Virus record (IMG/VR): IMGVR_UViG_2563366824_000001
Direction: 5' to 3' (one strand)
From: a virus
Taxonomy: Duplodnaviria; Heunggongvirae; Uroviricota; Caudoviricetes
DNA length: 46,473 nt
Under the pieces are notes generated by a model. The model saw only the letters and a program-made list of their open reading frames with translations, was not told where the DNA came from and made no database searches. This document shows positions 5,612 through 45,172 of this stretch, one piece after another. A program made the translations under genes and the position numbers. Every line of letters starts with the position of its first letter. Within the stretch, counting starts at the first letter, position 1.

Positions 5612-5974
5612 TTAATGACCTGCTGCGCGTAGTTTTCCGTCAGGTTCACCGGCAAGAGTCAGTAATTGTCCCTGGTCTTCCTGCAGAATAGTCAGGCGAC
5701 CACCGCGATTGACATACATCGGCGTTTCGGTGGTGTCTTCTTCGGAAATTTTCCCGCGGTTAGTCGGGCGAACATATGAGAGTTTGTGTTTGATTTTCAC
5801 ACGGTTCTCATCAAATGGTTCGATTTCCAGGTTGAGTGAGACCTTACCTTTGGTTTTCGTGTTCATCACACCGGAAGCGACTTCACTGAGAACTGCGCCG
5901 ATTTTGGTTTCAAATACGCCGCCGTCCAGCTCCCCGATAAATGCCTGCACATCAGTACTGCGTTCGCTAGCCAT
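5612..5974 (-). CDS. Hypothetical early protein (YfdP-like), first gene of the leftward operon
   Basis: Start placed at MASERSTDV..., preceded by SD gaggag at 8 nt (120 aa); the longer six-frame ORF extends into GC-rich non-coding sequence. Confidence 0.6.
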   Translation of the reverse strand: MASERSTDVQAFIGELDGGVFETKIGAVLSEVASGVMNTKTKGKVSLNLEIEPFDENRVKIKHKLSYVRPTNRGKISEEDTTETPMYVNRGGRLTILQEDQGQLLTLAGEPDGKLRAAGH

Positions 5975-6444
5975 TTTGCTGCTCCTCATCATATCGACCC
6001 TGCAAGGTCGGTTGGTTTCTCCACAAAACAGAGAAGAACACCTGCGGTGGCAGCCGCCCGGATGGATTGGGTTATGAGCCCGTCGTCCGGTGATGCTCTT
6101 CTCTGTTTTGCAAAAAAGGACGGTACCAGCCGGAAGCAAGGGTACAAACTGGTACCGCCAGGACTACACACAGCATAAAGTTGTGGTGCCGGGTGCCTCC
6201 CGGTGCCTGGCGAAGGTTGCACACCAGGCGGGTGGGTATCCACAGAAGGTCGACTGTCAGCCTCAACCTTAACCCGCGTGCGCTGAGCCGCATTCACCAC
6301 AACGCTAAGGATTCTCTCTGGTTGAAAATACTTAGCTGTTATGTGCCTGCTTTTAGCCACATCAGGCGAGGTGGACCTGGTTATTCCCCAACAACAAGGA
6401 TTCGGTTAATCTGGATATCCCCAACAACAATAAGAGTATTCAAT

Positions 6445-6960
6445 GTGATCGCTGAATTAACGGCAGCAATGACGGCTATTCGTGAAACAGCCCAGATTGC
6501 AAAACTAATGAACGAGGCAAAAACTCAAGCTGAAGTAAATGCGGCTATTGGTGAGCTGAACTCAAAGCTTGCGTCTATTCAGCGCGAATGCGTGTCTCTC
6601 GTTGAACTGGTGGGCTCTTATCAAGAAATAAATGCTTCTCTCAAAGCTAAAATTGCAGAATTCGAAAACTTTGAGGCTCAGACGGAAGGCTATATCCTTA
6701 ACCAACTTGAGTCGGGTACTTTTGTATACTCGAAGGAGGTAATCGTGAACGGTGGCAGCATAACCATGCATCTTTGCCCAAAATGTTTTGGACAAAAGAT
6801 AGTATCGATACTTCAACCATTCCCGGTTAGCGAAGATGAGCTTTTTCATAAAAGCAGGTGCCTCCACTGTGAAAATAAGTTTCTGATGAATAAAAATCCG
6901 GATTACGTATCGCCTCCATCCATTGAGGAGTTGTCCAGAAAACTTAACGGCAATCTGTAG
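6445..6960 (+). CDS. Coiled-coil protein with C-terminal C4 zinc ribbon; lysogeny-region accessory gene convergent with cI
   Basis: Probable GTG start at 6445 (SD aagag), alternative ATG at 6469; N-terminal heptad-like helix, C-terminal CPKC ... CLHC; own terminator at 6990..7017. Confidence 0.6.
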   Translation: MIAELTAAMTAIRETAQIAKLMNEAKTQAEVNAAIGELNSKLASIQRECVSLVELVGSYQEINASLKAKIAEFENFEAQTEGYILNQLESGTFVYSKEVIVNGGSITMHLCPKCFGQKIVSILQPFPVSEDELFHKSRCLHCENKFLMNKNPDYVSPPSIEELSRKLNGNL

Positions 6961-6989
6961 ATTGCTACTGTTGTGGATATCCAGATTGT

Positions 6990-7017
6990 TAAAGAGCTAA
7001 GCGTCCTGTAGGGCGCT
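6990..7017 (+). terminator. Rho-independent terminator for the 6445..6960 gene
   Basis: agcgtcc-tgta-gggcgct stem-loop followed by TTTTTT. Confidence 0.5.
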
Positions 7018-7139
7018 TTTTTGTTGCTAATGAATCATCCTAGACTTCATATGCTCCAGGCGGCTACTTCGTGGGCGTCCTGCCTGTTTGTTGTTTCTCT
7101 TGGGTACATTATGTATCCCAAAGGTACATTGTCAAGTAT

Positions 7140-7165
7140 AAAAAAACCTGCCGAAGCAGGTTCAT
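7140..7165 (-). terminator. Rho-independent terminator downstream of cI (minus strand)
   Basis: aacctgc-ttcg-gcaggtt stem-loop followed by a 7-T run when read on the minus strand, just past the cI stop. Confidence 0.55.
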
Positions 7166-7174
7166 AAACATTGA

Positions 7175-7849
7175 TTAGGCTTTGATTTTGTATCTTCTTG
7201 GTTTTCCTGAGAAAATCACAGTTCCAATTATAGAGCAATTACCGTTGATCTTAATGTAAGGCTCAGGCCAGTTTGGGTTTAACGCTTTGAGATAACGCTG
7301 TGTCCCATCTTCTATCAACCTTTTGAAGGTGGTTTCACCTGTATCGTGCATCAATGCAATAACGTCGTCACCGTGGCAGGCAGGTACTTCAGGATCGACA
7401 AAAATCATGTCTCCCGGGCGGTACTCATCAATCATTGAATCACCTATCACCCGCAAGATATAAGTCATTTCCCCACAGGGTACAGGGCAGGGATACGTTT
7501 CTGCTGTGCTCAAATCAACCTCAGAATATCCAACTTCTTTCCATGCTCCGGCCTGTACCCATGATATGACAGGGACTAATGTGATTTGTTTATTAGTGAT
7601 TGAAACATCAGGTTTTTTTGTGATGTTCGTTGTCTGGTGTTCTTGATCGAGCCATCCGACAGGCAGGTCGAAACATTTTTCGATGTGTCGTGCCATGCTG
7701 TCACCGATATTTTTAGTAGCACCATCTCCCATAAACCTGCTGGTCTGGGTTGGCTCGCGATCAATCATAGTGGCAAAGGAAGAATTCCCGCCAACACCAT
7801 CTCTCAGTTTTCTGGCGTTAGACCGCCGGATGTCATGGATTGTTTTCAT
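7175..7849 (-). CDS. cI: CI-type prophage repressor (N-terminal HTH, C-terminal LexA-like S24 autopeptidase domain)
   Basis: 224 aa; C-terminal GDSM ... K pattern of S24 peptidases; divergent from a Cro-like gene across a palindromic operator region. Confidence 0.85.
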   Translation of the reverse strand: MKTIHDIRRSNARKLRDGVGGNSSFATMIDREPTQTSRFMGDGATKNIGDSMARHIEKCFDLPVGWLDQEHQTTNITKKPDVSITNKQITLVPVISWVQAGAWKEVGYSEVDLSTAETYPCPVPCGEMTYILRVIGDSMIDEYRPGDMIFVDPEVPACHGDDVIALMHDTGETTFKRLIEDGTQRYLKALNPNWPEPYIKINGNCSIIGTVIFSGKPRRYKIKA

Positions 7850-7864
7850 AACGAAATTAAAACC

Positions 7865-7885
7865 CTTGTACCGTTAAGGTACAAG
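7865..7885. promoter_or_regulatory. Palindromic operator candidate (OR) between cI and cro
   Basis: cttgtacc-gttaa-ggtacaag: perfect 8-bp inverted arms. A second inverted repeat atatgta-N9-tacatat (7914..7936) overlaps the cro SD. Confidence 0.5.
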
Positions 7886-7939
7886 TATCTTGAAGGTTCA
7901 TTTCAATCATGTAATATGTATACCGGAGGTACATATTGT

Positions 7940-8140
7940 ATGAAAGCGTATTGGGACTCTTTAACCAAAGAACAGCAGGGCGAGTTGGCCGGAAAAGTTG
8001 GCTCAACACCTGGCTACTTACGGCTGGTTTTCAATGGCTATAAAAAAGCCAGTTTTGTGCTGGCTAAAAAACTTGAGCAATGCACGTCAGGTGCAATTAC
8101 GAAATCTGACTTAAGACCGGATATCTATCCGAAAGATTAG
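7940..8140 (+). CDS. cro: Cro-like HTH regulator
   Basis: 66 aa; SD ggaggt 9 nt before the ATG; divergent from cI; HTH-like GELAGKVGSTPGYL. Confidence 0.75.
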   Translation: MKAYWDSLTKEQQGELAGKVGSTPGYLRLVFNGYKKASFVLAKKLEQCTSGAITKSDLRPDIYPKD

Positions 8141-8171
8141 CAGAACACTTTCAATTTTTAACCACAGAACG

Positions 8172-8741
8172 ATGAGGCTAATCGTGGGTAAGCATCACTG
8201 GAAAATAGAAAAACAGCCTGAGTGGTACGTGAAAGCTGTCAGAAAAACTATCGCGGCGTTGCCGGGTGGTTACGCTGAAGCGGCTGACTGGCTCGATGTA
8301 ACAGAAAACGCTTTATTCAACCGCCTTCGTGCAGATGGCGATCAGATTTTCCCGCTGGGATGGGCAATGGTTTTACAGCGTGCTGGTGGCACTCATTTCA
8401 TTGCTGATGCTGTGGCGCAGTCTGCAAATGGCGTCTTTGTGTCTCTTCCTGACGTCGAGGATGTGGACAACGCCGATATTAACCAGCGTCTGCTGGAAGT
8501 CATTGAACAGATCGGCAGTTATTCAAAACAGATTCGTTCAGCAATCGAAGACGGTGTAGTGGAACCGCATGAGAAGACAGCAATTAACGACGAGCTGTAT
8601 CTCTCAATTTCGAAGCTGCAGGAGCATGCAGCACTTGTCTACAAAATTTTTTGCATTTCAGAAAGTAATGACGCCCGCGAGTGTGCAGCTCCGGGCGTCG
8701 TGGCGTCGATTGCTTCTGGTTGTGGAGAAACTAACGCATGA
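8172..8741 (+). CDS. Hypothetical protein at the cII position (possible CII/YdaT-like regulator)
   Basis: 189-aa ORF right after cro; family assignment is a guess from position only; alternative GTG start at 8184 has a better SD. Confidence 0.45.
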
Positions 8742-15101: not shown

Positions 15102-15401
15102 AAAAATTCCTTAATACTGATAACTGGGCGCACTATACACACGTTCCTGAAGAAAGCTATAGTTTTTTGATGGGGTTGAAGATGGCTGGATGTCTAAAAT
15201 AAACATTGCTTCATATGTTCAACTATGCGTTAATGATTGCGTCGGTTTGAAGAACAGACGATATACGAAGTAGTTTACTAAAGCAGTTCTCATTTCAGGT
15301 GTTATTCACTTATTCCTTCTTTGAGTCTCTCCAATTAAGTACGAAGTCGTTTCTGTTATACAAGCCATTTATGCCGAAAGGCTCAAGTTAAGGAATGTAG
15401 A

Positions 15402-15617
15402 ATGTCAAATAAAATGACTGGTTTAGTAAAATGGTTTAACGCTGATAAAGGTTTTGGCTTTATTTCTCCTGTTGATGGTAGTAAAGATGTGTTTGTGCAT
15501 TTTTCTGCGATTCAGAATGATAATTTTCGAACCTTATTTGAAGGTCAAAAGGTTACCTTCTCTGTAGAGAGTGGTGCTAAAGGTCCTGCAGCAGCAAATG
15601 TCATAATTACTGATTAA
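15402..15617 (+). CDS. cspB: Cold-shock protein CspB-like
   Basis: 71 aa [67 protein letters not shown]; RNP1/RNP2 motifs present. Confidence 0.85.
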
Positions 15618-15898
15618 AATTCATAGTTTGTCTGTATACGATAACGAAGAAGGCTGATGCCTGAGTGGAGATACAGACAGAGTGGTGAATATTGGATCTC
15701 TTTAATAAATAGTAAGGAGGTCCAATACATGAAACAATGGCCAGCATATTTGGCAATAACTTAATCAGGAAAAGTATGCTAACCATTGTGGTGAAGTGCA
15801 GGTTTGCTGCATGAATAGTTTTACAGCAGAAGCTAACTGCTGGCATAGCAAAACAAAGTGCGTAAGTGGATGACTCCCACAAAAAGTACCACAATATT

Positions 15899-18490: not shown

Positions 18491-18850
18491 ATTAATATTA
18501 AATCGGATTATTTTTAGCGCTGAATGTGAAATTTAAATAAAAAGGACTCTTCCATGAGTCAAAATCCTTGAAATCTTAAGGGTAAGATAAAAGGTCATTA
18601 GACAGAATGACACGTTTTATTAATAAATAAAGCTATTGTTTCATTCGTGTGTTTTTCTTTACAAAAGTAATCCTTGCTATGGTTGGTTAATCATGCGTTA
18701 ATGGTGTTCTGGTTTGTTACAAAATTATCTGAAGCAGTCATTGTTATAATTTTATTATTTGTACCTCTTGAGATCTCCTTGTTGGTTTTTCTCTCTGATA
18801 TTTTTTTTCGGACCATTCTGCCCAAGGGCTAACTTCTTCAAAAGGTAATA

Positions 18851-19066
18851 ATGATGTCTAACAAAATGACTGGTTTAGTGAAATGGTTTAACCCTGAAAA
18901 AGGTTTTGGTTTCATCACGCCGAAAGATGGTAGCAAAGATGTGTTTGTCCATTTCTCAGTTATTCAGAGCAACGATTTCAAAACGTTAACTGAGAATCAG
19001 GAAGTCGAATTCGGTATTGAGAACGGACCTAAAGGCCCCGCGGCTGTTCATGTAGTGGCACTTTGA
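18851..19066 (+). CDS. cspI: Cold-shock protein CspI-like
   Basis: [71 protein letters not shown]; long AT-rich 5' leader upstream as in csp genes. Confidence 0.85.
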
Positions 19067-19269
19067 GGTAGAAAATATTACAAACCATATTCACTTTAGA
19101 TGCCCGTGTTGCCATGGTTCTCAGTATAGAACATCATCTTTTGATGTTTCTGACAGGAATCCTTTCGGGGCAAAATGTATCTTTTGTAAATCAATGATGA
19201 TTACATTTGATAATATTTCACAATACTTAAATGTTAGCCGTCTGTCGTTAGATTTAAGAAAGTGAAAAT

Positions 19270-35709: not shown

Positions 35710-37145
<1,436 letters not shown>

Positions 37146-44748: not shown

Positions 44749-45042
44749 ATGGATATAACACCTTTTCTTCATGCGCTTTGTGCTGTGGCTGCGCAGGTAA
44801 TGATTGGTCTTTTTACCGGAAACTGGGTTTACGGGGCGATAGCCGGTTGTACGTTCTTCATTGCGCGTGAACACACCCAGGCAGAATATCGCTGGATTGA
44901 AATGTTCGGGCATGGCAAGCGGATTAACATGCCGTGGTGGGGCGGTTTTGATCCGCGTGTTTGGGATGTGGCAAGCCTGATAGATTTTGCTGTGCCGGTG
45001 GTGGCGTGTCTGCTGGTCTGGCTGTTGGTTAATCGTGGGTGA
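44749..45042 (+). CDS. Small inner-membrane protein with two predicted TM helices
   Basis: SD aaggagg; hydrophobic helices LHALCAVAAQVMIGLFTGNWVYGAIAGCTFFIA and VASLIDFAVPVVACLLVWLLV. Confidence 0.6.
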   Translation: MDITPFLHALCAVAAQVMIGLFTGNWVYGAIAGCTFFIAREHTQAEYRWIEMFGHGKRINMPWWGGFDPRVWDVASLIDFAVPVVACLLVWLLVNRG

Positions 45043-45052
45043 AAAAAGGTGA

Positions 45053-45172
45053 GCTGTATATGCAACGGAGGAAGAAACCCCGTTGCTGGAAGCCTGGAAA
45101 AAGTATCGGGTGTTGCTGAACCGTGTTGATACGTCAACTGCACAGGATATTGAATGGCCAGCACTGCCGTAG
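45053..45172 (+). pseudogene. tfa: 3'-terminal remnant (39 codons) of a tail fibre assembly gene tfa
   Basis: Open frame encodes [39 protein letters not shown], matching the conserved Tfa C-terminus (...YR..L..VDTSTAPDIEWP..P, from memory); no in-frame start, and an upstream TGA at 45050. Confidence 0.55.

Follow-up and report, generated by a model that had tools for sequence, protein, structure and literature searches.

A pseudoknotted leader RNA of the early-left operon in an SfV-like prophage is a new member of the STnc100/PasD/sRNA-17 family

STnc100 overlaps the Hfq-bound EcOnc27/sRNA103 (PMC12711010), and PasD is an abundant Hfq RIL-seq sRNA that has been validated by Northern blot and described as a structural homologue of STnc100 (bioRxiv 10.64898/2026.05.13.724894). 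sRNA-17 of E. coli RS218 (K1) is 193 nt long as determined by 5'/3' RACE and Northern blot; its authors reported finding no counterpart in Rfam and gave no description of its fold, and yfdP rose from 0.49 to 47 reads upon deletion of sRNA-17 (PMC7719688). DicF originates from a PL-equivalent transcript by RNase III/E processing and termination, with no longer read-through species detected past dicF (bioRxiv 10.1101/2023.04.14.536235), and an RNase III-dependent 3' end of the 72-nt DicF has been reported (PMC5069750). The put RNA, which starts with the PL transcript, measures about 70 nt and folds as two stem-loops (PMC9378689).

We analyzed a stretch of 46,473 nt (the window), an E. coli prophage of the SfV-like lambdoid type. 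Positions 6430-5975 of its minus strand are a folded non-coding 5' leader of the prophage early-left operon, which carries yfdP/yfdQ/yfdR-like genes. Of 5426 complete E. coli genomes, 2780 carry the leader; in K-12 CPS-53 it is deleted, and yfdO is almost fused to the yfdP ribosome-binding site. The minus strand of the region flagged by a first-pass annotation (5975-6444) consists of four parts: decayed repeats, a pseudoknotted core, a DicF-like terminator and a long hairpin (hairpin 2). Its features, and the start of the following gene, are:

6430-6418 and 6397-6385, minus strand: two exact 13-nt direct repeats, RNA-strand sequence UUGUUGUUGGGGA (0/100 shuffles)
6303-6338, minus strand: hairpin X of the MFE fold, CAGCUAAG...CCUUAGCG, abutting helix P1
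6303-6180, minus strand: core RNA of the STnc100/PasD/sRNA-17 family, ~125 nt, five helices and a pseudoknot
6303-6295 with 6188-6180, minus strand: helix P1, 9 bp in the window copy
6291-6276, minus strand: helix P2, covariation in the same set as P1
6270-6264 with 6219-6213, minus strand: pseudoknot, from a custom pairing analysis
6228-6222 with 6212-6206, minus strand: helix P4, compensatory variation
6203-6189, minus strand: invariant P5 CCGGGAGGCACCCGG, conserved sequence
6162-6174, minus strand: single-stranded GCUGUGUGUAGUC between core and terminator, aligning with the DicF 5' region
6159-6112, minus strand: intrinsic terminator, 11-13 bp stem GGCGGUACCAG / CUGGUACCGUC, 19-nt loop, U6 at 6117-6112
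6110-6024, minus strand: hairpin 2, 19-bp basal stem with G-U pairs and a branched tip, running into GUGGAGA
6010-5995, minus strand: small hairpin at the leader 3' end
5987-5982, minus strand: Shine-Dalgarno GAGGAG of the yfdP-like gene
5974-5612, minus strand: yfdP-like gene, ATG at 5974-5972, protein matching phrog_204

As the first-pass annotation had noted, the region is GC-rich (0.55-0.58 over 5900-6400 compared with ~0.35-0.50 in the flanks) and contains no credible ORF. Mechanically called ORFs of 123, 73 and 60 aa do overlap it, and two of the three match PHROG families of unknown function: the 60-aa plus-strand ORF (6090-6269) aligns with positions 109-160 of the 162 in the phrog_3651 profile (E = 1e-30), and the 123-aa minus-strand ORF matches phrog_33599 (E = 4e-15). 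A Pfam search gave no match. Homologous cores are 97-125 nt long, with differences of 1 or 2 nt that are not multiples of 3. These length differences, together with compensatory base-pair changes, show that the region is non-coding, and phrog_3651 and phrog_33599 are probably ORF calls gathered on conserved non-coding DNA. "Hypothetical proteins" are annotated at the leader locus in several phage records. ARAGORN found zero tRNAs in the whole window. Folding gave -161.6 kcal/mol for a 386-nt minus-strand RNA, compared with -129.5 +/- 5.5 for shuffles (z = -5.9), a structure beyond chance.

At gathering thresholds, an Rfam search of the region returned nothing. In E-value mode, STnc100 (RF02076) matches 6333-6110(-) with 40.3 bits, which misses its gathering score of 47, at E-values of 7e-7 in a 1.7-kb search and 2e-5 over the whole window; DicF (RF00039) reaches 15.7 bits (E = 3.2) at 6172-6118(-), below its gathering score of 48. 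The window copy has GGUGAAU ... CACCGGGAGGCACCCGGCACC with helices P1, P2, P4 and P5, and GGUGAAU ... CACCGGGAGGCACCCGGCACC is common to the window, SfV, ST64B, phiES15, P1/SJ46 and 933W. The invariant 20-mer is exact at 6204-6185(-), in the sole core copy of the window, and viral contigs hold more than 170 distinct core copies.

The core is conserved at the RNA level. P1 and P2 covary among 48 representatives, and the outer pairs of P1 are changed on both sides in 7-14 of the 48. Among 50 representatives, P4 appears as 46 different stems, scoring 7.5 compared with 4.9 +/- 1.8 for shuffled sequences. The pseudoknot has at least 6 bp in 38 of the 50 representatives, compared with 9.7 +/- 2.4 with permuted partners, and it comprises 63 distinct pairings at a fixed offset. 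Custom scripts were used for the pseudoknot and P4 counts because MAFFT misaligns the variable middle of the core. Beside the covarying helices and pseudoknot, 29 invariant columns lie in the junctions and P5, a pattern seen more typically in RNAs that bind a ligand, a protein or polymerase than in base-pairing sRNAs. A literature search with the invariant sequences of the core family found nothing. By our own terminator detector, only about half of the distinct cores are followed by a hairpin and T5. A core copy precedes kil in phiES15 and lies 20-40 nt before dicB in Qin and tciA in P1; the P1 and Qin cores have no terminator of their own and stand directly ahead of tciA or dicB, indicating that the core is probably more than the body of a terminated sRNA. 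In phage P1, the core is located among tRNA genes.

We placed sRNA-17 onto mEp460 via its published primers. The full-length primers, starting with CGTTGTGGTGAATGCG and ending with GGTACCGCTCTTTT, span the mEp460-type leader from the 5' strand of P1 to the terminator U tract, and through them the RACE-mapped 3' end of sRNA-17 corresponds to the terminator hairpin. The counterpart of the window's core-terminator unit in an mEp460-type prophage is sRNA-17. Both are encoded on the yfdP strand, in the interval from the cI side to the yfdP-like gene, and end in a GGUACC-type terminator; they have the P1 strands GUUGUGGUGAAU ... CACCACAAC in common, and the stretch from the terminator hairpin through hairpin 2 to the ribosome-binding region is 98% identical. 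The mEp460-type core differs in its P5-like hairpin CCGG-AGAUCAGCA-CCGG and in its other middle helices. Because the core interior differs, BLAST joins the window and the mEp460 type only downstream of ~6160; nucleotide identity to sRNA-17 does not cover the whole 193 nt, and mEp460-type records align only over 5900-6160. Lysogen RNA-seq contains 2-8 sRNA-17 reads per library, so few that the RNA may matter only after induction. We rejected terminator loss as the cause of the yfdP de-repression in the sRNA-17 deletion, since the primers show that the Cm-cassette replacement kept the terminator; cassette read-through could therefore explain the rise.

STnc100 (overlapping EcOnc27/sRNA103 downstream of stx2B) and PasD1/PasD2 share with the window the invariant junction, P5, the P1/P2/P4/P5 layout and, as found here, the pseudoknot; they are prophage-borne, and an intrinsic terminator usually comes next. 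In contrast to the window, their copies are in the late region (Q, stx, lysis), the upstream RUGCUCUY hairpin is absent, and P2 is CCCCC...GGGG instead of GCGGC...GC-CGC. In K-12 Qin, a core copy lies in the dicF-dicB spacer (34.4 bits), its P5 is compensatorily changed to CCUGG/CCAGG, and the reported DicF 3' end falls into its 17-bp P1. The dicBF operon of Qin resembles the window in being an early-left (PL-equivalent) lambdoid operon with a core of this family; in Qin, the leader gives rise to an sRNA by RNase III/E processing and intrinsic termination, and the terminator module of the window aligns with DicF. However, DicF precedes the core in Qin, whereas the core precedes the DicF-like hairpin in the window, and conservation does not extend to the ftsZ-pairing 3' half of DicF.

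In a local alignment with DicF, the terminator module and linker obtain a score of 43 (shuffle mean 18), which 1 of 1000 shuffles attains. The linker GCUGUGUGUAGUC is kept across subtypes that differ in core and terminator, and it is a candidate seed. The GGTACC, GGTACA and GGTACC motifs at 6122-6127, 6141-6146 and 6151-6156 are present as first reported; related at that time to operator half-sites, they are instead the two arms and the loop of the terminator hairpin, which moves with the yfdP module. The hairpin and this module have 98% identity in Stx2c, mEp460 and cdtI phages, and because these phages diverge upstream of ~6160, the hairpin is not linked to the immunity region of the window. 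We considered and rejected a riboswitch-style switch in which the 3' strand of P4 would pair with the 5' strand of the terminator; the window has 7 nt of such complementarity, but on inspection the ST64B and phiES15 types do not keep it.

Downstream of the terminator, the inverted repeat seen in the first reading forms hairpin 2 and turns out to be longer than stated, with DNA arms of 24 nt (6024-6047 / 6087-6110, 83% complementary) and a basal RNA stem of 19 bp. Hairpin 2 is kept in ST64B-type and other leaders, and in the suggested comparison with relatives 3 of its stem pairs carry changes in both strands; in other subtypes, unrelated sequences fold into a corresponding hairpin that ends in UGUGUGGAGA. 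The lambda N leader has a long RNase III hairpin downstream of the PL-proximal signals and ahead of the ribosome-binding site of the first gene read from PL. Hairpin 2 occupies the equivalent position, although the sequences are unrelated, and it may be cut by RNase III. With its terminator-type and conserved long hairpins, the region is the structured non-coding leader of the leftward early operon that had been proposed.

Upstream of the core, the direct repeat recorded earlier is exact: TCCCCAACAACAA occurs at 6385-6397 and 6418-6430, and 0 of 100 shuffles have two matches. Positions 6386-6403 are 78% identical to 6297-6314 (family D1), and the 13-nt repeats of 6385-6430 are read, from their sequence, as putative diverged or decayed copies of the junction at the core 5' edge. 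Their bipartite UGUUGGGGA...UGUUGGGGAAUA motif is also found in the HK639 PL operon, and mosaic joints with respect to other phages lie at ~6374 and ~6428. At the position of hairpin X, relatives have a long hairpin with the 3'-strand consensus RUGCUCUYNNCGUUGU, which is matched by 42 of 97 early-left-type upstream flanks, compared with a background frequency of 0.002. We also rejected a boxA in the 3' strand of hairpin X; this strand is boxA-like in many relatives but base-paired, and it is degenerate in the window.

PL and OL, which had been expected within the flagged region, are located instead at 7092-7135, 0.8-1.1 kb upstream of it, with these features around them:

7135-7108, minus strand: PL, TTGACA-16-CATAAT, 11/12 matches, directly after the cI terminator
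7112-7128 and 7092-7108, minus strand: OL sites, TGTACC-N5-GGTACA-like
7091-7030, minus strand: element A, a 62-nt structured RNA starting ~10 nt after the predicted PL start
6997-6986, minus strand: the window's sole exact rrn-type boxA, GCUCUUUAACAA, carried by the PL transcript
6445-6960, plus strand: convergent moron ORF, 171 aa, coiled coil and C-terminal Cys4 motif; phrog_1244, E = 9e-60
6999-7018, plus strand: the moron ORF's own terminator

This PL alone combines a strong sigma-70-like promoter with cI-type operators. Within 5975-6444, no promoter-like site was found, and TGTACC-N5-GGTACA with up to 3 mismatches never occurs there; in the regulatory regions, it occurs only at 7092-7128 and 7867-7933. 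PADLOC gave zero matches on the neighboring ORFs. The moron ORF is, of necessity, crossed antisense by the PL transcript.

The early report that an N-like gene is missing holds for the minus strand from 7100 to 5975, where no N-like ORF was found. Its suggestion of a nut-like site did not hold, as there is neither a boxA inside 5975-6444 nor an N-like ORF; the boxA at 6997-6986 is not conserved in relatives and therefore carries no claim. Likeness to put was judged by a length of ~70 nt and two stem-loops at or near a promoter, with HK022 having put sites after both PL and PR. A blastn-short comparison of the HK022 immunity region with 5900-8300 gave chance matches of up to 15 nt, none meaningful in the leader, and HK639 putL is unrelated to the leader. 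The window does resemble HK022 and HK639 in combining an N-less lambdoid phage with a structured PL-leader RNA ahead of terminators. However, its core, ~125 nt long, has five helices and a pseudoknot, lies ~800 nt away from PL and occurs once, and the put-type RNA envisaged for 5975-6444 finds no support in sequence, architecture or copy number. Element A is like put in position and size, not in sequence. It contains 23 invariant nucleotides (AGGCAGGACGCCCACGAAGUAGC at 7085-7063) and two covarying helices, with compensatory changes in 9 of 13 pairs among 16 sequences, and nine phages have lineage-specific promoter/operator sequences at an equal distance ahead of it. An RNA-based mechanism may still operate in this N-less phage, with element A as a better antiterminator candidate than the flagged stretch.

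We consider it on balance probable that the leader yields a processed and terminated small RNA of ~190 nt and attenuates the early-left operon. PL at 7135-7108 would transcribe the leader and then the yfdP/yfdQ/yfdR-like genes, and by analogy the window copy would be transcribed and processed as in its relatives. The majority of PL transcripts would stop at the terminator (6159-6112), and RNase III or a different processing enzyme would probably trim their 5' end where P1 has its base. The predicted RNA unit runs from 6304 to ~6113 and comprises the core, the conserved single-stranded stretch and the DicF-like terminator. We infer a stable small RNA, probably bound by Hfq via its U-tailed terminator and acting on targets in trans, and an attenuator role in cis, in which the terminator would hold the early-left genes low unless read through. 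The read-through RNA would carry hairpin 2 as a near-perfect stem just before the ribosome-binding site.

Rather unlikely, in our judgment, is a core that acts in cis as a sensor or binding platform for a metabolite, protein, RNA polymerase or ribosome, gating the adjacent terminator or the translation or stability of the next, often toxic gene (dicB, kil, tciA or the yfdP operon), with the terminated sRNA as a by-product. The 29 invariant columns beside covarying helices and a pseudoknot do form a riboswitch- or ribozyme-like pattern, and the core lies 20-40 nt before dicB (Qin) and tciA (P1) with no intervening terminator and just before kil (phiES15), but no conserved alternative core-terminator pairing was found, Rfam gave zero riboswitch or ribozyme matches, and the relatives were recovered as discrete Hfq-bound RNAs. 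That the relatives are Hfq-bound, with RIL-seq partners, also argues against a leader that is mainly a processing or insulation module, a tRNA-like "punctuation" with no trans-acting role. RNase III or RNase P would then cut at P1 and the long hairpins, so that segments of the PL transcript are separated and differentially stabilized. Inside P1, 5-6 nt ahead of GGUGAAU, lie both the 5' end of sRNA-17 and the RNase III site of Qin, and hairpin X and hairpin 2 have long stems. The fold is cloverleaf-like, with P5 abutting the P1 3' strand like a T arm on an acceptor stem; relatives carry T-arm-like GGUUCGAUUCC inserts, the HK639 PL operon has a tRNA-Ile-like gene at a similar location, and the phage P1 core has tRNA genes around it. 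Against these likenesses stand the tRNA-negative ARAGORN result in the window, a window P1 of only 9 bp, which is short for RNase III, and the seed-like conserved single-stranded motif, and we regard a pure processing module as doubtful at best.

A cis-acting processive antiterminator RNA of the put type would suit a stretch from PL to the first early-left gene that has no N-like gene, at least one intrinsic terminator to be passed and a highly structured RNA. Such an element in the flagged region is very unlikely, considering its lack of similarity to HK022/HK639 put and its different size, fold, PL distance and copy number; moreover, the transcript of the mEp460-type homologue ends at the terminator right after the core, and no read-through species past dicF was detected in Qin. 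The profile matches (E = 1e-30 for phrog_3651 and E = 4e-15 for phrog_33599) and the "hypothetical proteins" in phage records could reflect a degraded or real gene on the plus or minus strand, respectively, but this is highly improbable given the missing Pfam match, core lengths differing by 1 or 2 nt, variation that is compensatory and concentrated at paired positions, and the minus-strand RNA mapped with the sRNA-17 primers. Hardly credible is a PL/OL within the region with GGTACC/GGTACA as cI operator half-sites: the hexamers resemble the OR palindrome half-sites TGTACC/GGTACA, but 5975-6444 has neither the operator pattern (up to 3 mismatches) nor a promoter-like site, and the hairpin holding the motifs is 98% identical in phages that diverge upstream of ~6160. 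More tentatively, and with only a modest chance of being right, the PL leader of the N-less SfV/ST64B/mEp460 type can be viewed as a two-part RNA device made of a put-like element A and a binding/processing core. Element A may be a protein-independent put-like antiterminator of a new sequence family, the core may be a cloverleaf-like specific binding/processing module, possibly tRNA-derived, that goes beyond an sRNA body, and the two together may determine if RNA polymerase gets through the one to three terminators of the leader and on into the early-left genes.

The leader RNA is a new member of a known, functionally obscure family, which is annotated merely as "sRNA" of unknown role and whose early-left subfamily falls below the Rfam threshold. 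One common pseudoknotted fold emerges for sRNA-17, STnc100/PasD and the unannotated dicF-dicB spacer of K-12; in the early-left subfamily, this fold emerges as coupled to a DicF-like terminator, with a second conserved RNA at the PL start. Because ORF callers now put "hypothetical proteins" on the leader RNA, better genome annotation can be expected. Relatives adjoin Shiga toxin genes and the cell-division inhibitors dicB and kil, and also occur in phage P1. The shared fold, the terminator coupling and element A give testable handles on the control of early-left and toxic genes in N-less lambdoid prophages.

The window is an SfV-like lambdoid prophage, and the sequence of the flagged region (5975-6444) shows 100% identity to Escherichia phage PhiR49_1 and 97-98% identity to SfV and SfIV. 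The neighboring features are as follows:

8172-8741, cII (Phage_CP76)
start near 7941, plus strand, cro-like gene
7175-7849, minus strand, cI (S24 peptidase family)
6999-7018, plus strand, terminator of the moron ORF
6445-6960, plus strand, moron ORF between cI and the flagged region (phrog_1244, 171 aa, with a coiled coil and a C-terminal CxxC...CxxC motif)
5974-5612, leftward, yfdP-like gene
5546-4722, leftward, yfdQ-like gene
4621-4058, leftward, yfdR-like gene

The moron ORF has no PADLOC match, phrog_1244 is a family of unknown function, and SfV carries a different gene, the leftward orf33, at this position. Because the moron ORF sits between PL and the leader in the opposite orientation, transcription from PL has to traverse it antisense. 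Elsewhere in the window, the cspA-thermoregulator (two full-length matches, 156 and 120 bits), the isrC sRNA (150 bits), and IS009 (66 bits, below the threshold of 117) are matched, the listed coordinates being 15241-15680(+), 18707-19112(+), 36777-36899(-), and 44978-45138(+). Modules of isrK and C4 antisense RNA (P1/P7 immI-like antirepressor control) lie in the rightward operons of SfV (L002 7062-7250), mEp460 (L008 6250-6438), and ST64B (L004 1409-1597), and no match to them is reported in the window.

The flagged region is GC-rich, as the first-pass annotation had described it (0.55-0.58 versus roughly 0.35-0.50 in the flanks), and its minus-strand RNA folds far more stably than shuffled controls (z = -5.9). 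The covariance-model search proposed in that annotation gives a match to Rfam STnc100 (RF02076) at 6333-6110(-) with 40.3 bits and E = 7e-7 (E-value mode), which falls under the gathering score of 47 bits. The flagged element is a sub-Rfam-threshold new member of a known, poorly understood prophage RNA family. Its core, about 125 nt from GUUGUGGUGAAU to CACCGGGAGGCACCCGGCACCACAAC, folds into five helices and one pseudoknot, including:

6303-6295 / 6188-6180, minus strand, P1, closing the core structure
6291-6276, minus strand, P2
6270-6264 / 6219-6213, minus strand, pseudoknot
6228-6222 / 6212-6206, minus strand, P4
6203-6189, minus strand, P5, invariant

Comparison with relatives reveals compensatory changes in the core helices. 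Of 48 sequences, 7-14 have the outer pairs of P1 altered on both sides, P2 occurs in two covarying forms, and P4 has 46 different stems in 50 representatives. The pseudoknot, in which the P4 loop pairs with the strand directly after P2, is missing in the consensus-structure line printed with the Rfam STnc100 match. Its 63 distinct complementary pairings all keep one offset, and 38 of 50 representatives have a pseudoknot of 6 bp or more, compared to 9.7 +/- 2.4 (maximum 17) when loops and targets were permuted among members. Two pattern scans of viral contigs yielded more than 170 distinct core copies. Early-left leaders of SfV, ST64B, and phiES15 also contain the core, as do the region downstream of stx2B in 933W and, immediately before tciA, the ban operon of P1 and SJ46. 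In these P1-like plasmid prophages (P1 L003 2499-2628, upstream of tciA; SJ46 L007), the operon is C1-controlled and the core, which lacks a terminator, is flanked by tRNA genes and tciA; the adjoining hairpin could sequester the tciA Shine-Dalgarno sequence. Two or three closely spaced copies occur in contigs L011, L133, L136, L144, L176, L188, L198, and L236, and the three copies within about 1.1 kb of L136 suggest tandem amplification of the unit.

The core is followed by a conserved single-stranded GCUGUGUGUAGUC (6174-6162(-)) and a hairpin at 6159-6119(-) that runs into U6. The three GGTACC/GGTACA hexamers previously likened to operator half-sites are all present where the annotation placed them and form the arms and loop of this hairpin. 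The alignment of terminator hairpin plus GCUGUGUGUAGUC with DicF outscores 999 of 1000 shuffles. The inverted repeat noted earlier (hairpin 2) is longer than first reported, with 24-nt arms at 6024-6047 and 6087-6110. Leaders of the ST64B type and others keep it, with both sides altered at three stem pairs. In further subtypes unrelated replacement sequences form an equivalent hairpin, and every version leads into UGUGGAGA. The 13-nt direct repeat is also exact and is matched by none of 100 shuffles. Its copies sit at mosaic joints (6374 and 6428), match the 5' edge of the core at 78% over 18 nt, and share a bipartite motif with the HK639 PL operon; we read them as decayed duplicates of the core 5'-edge junction.

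PL/OL, expected by the first-pass annotation within the flagged region, lies elsewhere. A scan of 5900-8000 found only three promoter-like sites, none of them in 5975-6444, and the strongest (TTGACA-16-CATAAT, 7135-7108(-)) is directly past the cI terminator (7163-7144). The OR palindrome TGTACC-N5-GGTACA has copies, differing at one or two positions, at 7112-7128 and 7092-7108, and a pattern search showed that it is absent throughout the flagged region. In nine phages with differing operators, a promoter with lineage-specific repeats stands at a constant distance before a shared downstream element. Taken together, these results place PL/OL at 7092-7135, which makes the flagged region the distal portion of a leader of about 1.1 kb. 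The PL transcript also carries the sole exact copy in the window of the 12-nt rrn-type boxA (GCUCUUUAACAA, 6986-6997(-)), just after the hairpin serving as the moron ORF terminator; this boxA is not kept in related leaders.

The HK022 put-type antitermination proposed for the flagged stretch is unlikely, as the stretch has no similarity to HK022 or HK639 put, the size, fold, and PL distance of the core are wrong for put (PMC9378689), and the window holds only one core copy. A better candidate for RNA-based antitermination, because of its position, size, and downstream terminators, is element A, a structured RNA of about 62 nt at 7091-7030(-) that begins about 10 nt past the predicted PL start. 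Element A has 23 nt that never vary (AGGCAGGACGCCCACGAAGUAGC, 7085-7063(-)) as well as two covarying helices, with compensatory changes in 9 of 13 predicted pairs (16 sequences), and it is conserved, once per locus, behind cI/PL in the phages of eight or more genera (among them Escherichia, Shigella, Citrobacter, Pantoea, Yersinia, Salmonella, Klebsiella, and Pectobacterium). The core lies 325-921 nt downstream of it in 54 of 60 fetched loci, and a terminator-like site separates the two in 29 of 41 distinct intervals. Element A is absent from Rfam and shows no sequence resemblance to put, and we consider it a candidate antiterminator or leader element.

Several relatives of the core have been studied experimentally. 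The sRNA-17 of E. coli K1 RS218, from an mEp460-like prophage, is 193 nt by 5'/3' RACE and Northern blot, and its full-length primers, as published, begin with CGTTGTGGTGAATGCG and finish with GGTACCGCTCTTTT (PMC7719688). On mEp460, the P1 5' strand and the U tract of the terminator hairpin also present in the window mark the exact limits of this span. Deletion of sRNA-17 raised yfdP from 0.49 to 47 reads (PMC7719688), which is unusable as proof because the cassette replacement left the terminator in place. In K-12 Qin, a core copy with 34.4 bits to STnc100, under threshold, lies between dicF and dicB (L250 2447-2590, NC_000913 about 1649446-1649589), a spacer with no feature annotated in the RefSeq record. 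Its P5 is compensatorily altered to CCUGG/CCAGG, and the reported RNase III-dependent 3' end of the 72-nt DicF (PMC5069750) maps inside its 17-bp P1. RNase III/E processing of the PL-equivalent transcript, together with termination, yields DicF, and read-through species of greater length were not seen for the dicBF operon (bioRxiv 10.1101/2023.04.14.536235). Among late-region relatives, STnc100 overlaps the Hfq-bound EcOnc27/sRNA103 (PMC12711010), and PasD, an sRNA abundant in Hfq RIL-seq, is regarded by its authors as an STnc100 homologue (bioRxiv 10.64898/2026.05.13.724894).

A protein-coding explanation could draw on PHROG 3651 and 33599, which match ORFs overlapping the structured RNA (6090-6269(+) and 5992-6360(-)). 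It fails because core lengths among homologues differ by non-multiples of three, the changes seen are compensatory, and Pfam gives no match, which makes the region non-coding, as the annotation had held; both PHROGs are probably ORF calls on conserved non-coding DNA. In two less probable readings, the core would be a cis-acting sensor or binding element, or a pure processing ("punctuation") module, possibly tRNA-derived. The core shows riboswitch-like conservation and also occurs, lacking its own terminator, right next to dicB and tciA on their upstream side. A tRNA-Ile-like gene is found in the HK639 PL operon (L257 5695-5764), and T-arm-like GGUUCGAUUCC hairpins followed by ACC occur within the variable inserts of the hairpin upstream of the core (L012, L056, and L077), a hint of a tRNA-derived origin of leader modules.

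The analysis demonstrates the fold, the terminator shape, the homologies, and where PL lies; for this particular phage, we infer that the RNA is expressed and processed, binds Hfq, and attenuates. In the most likely course of events, the core is part of a processed and terminated leader RNA. PL transcripts would pass the moron ORF antisense and then reach the leader, where most would end at 6112-6117. Processing at the base of P1 would release a stable RNA of about 190 nt, in which a structured body is joined to a single-stranded, seed-like stretch and a terminator whose U tail would suit Hfq. On read-through RNA, hairpin 2 would stand directly ahead of the ribosome-binding site, and the same terminator would also hold the yfdP operon low.
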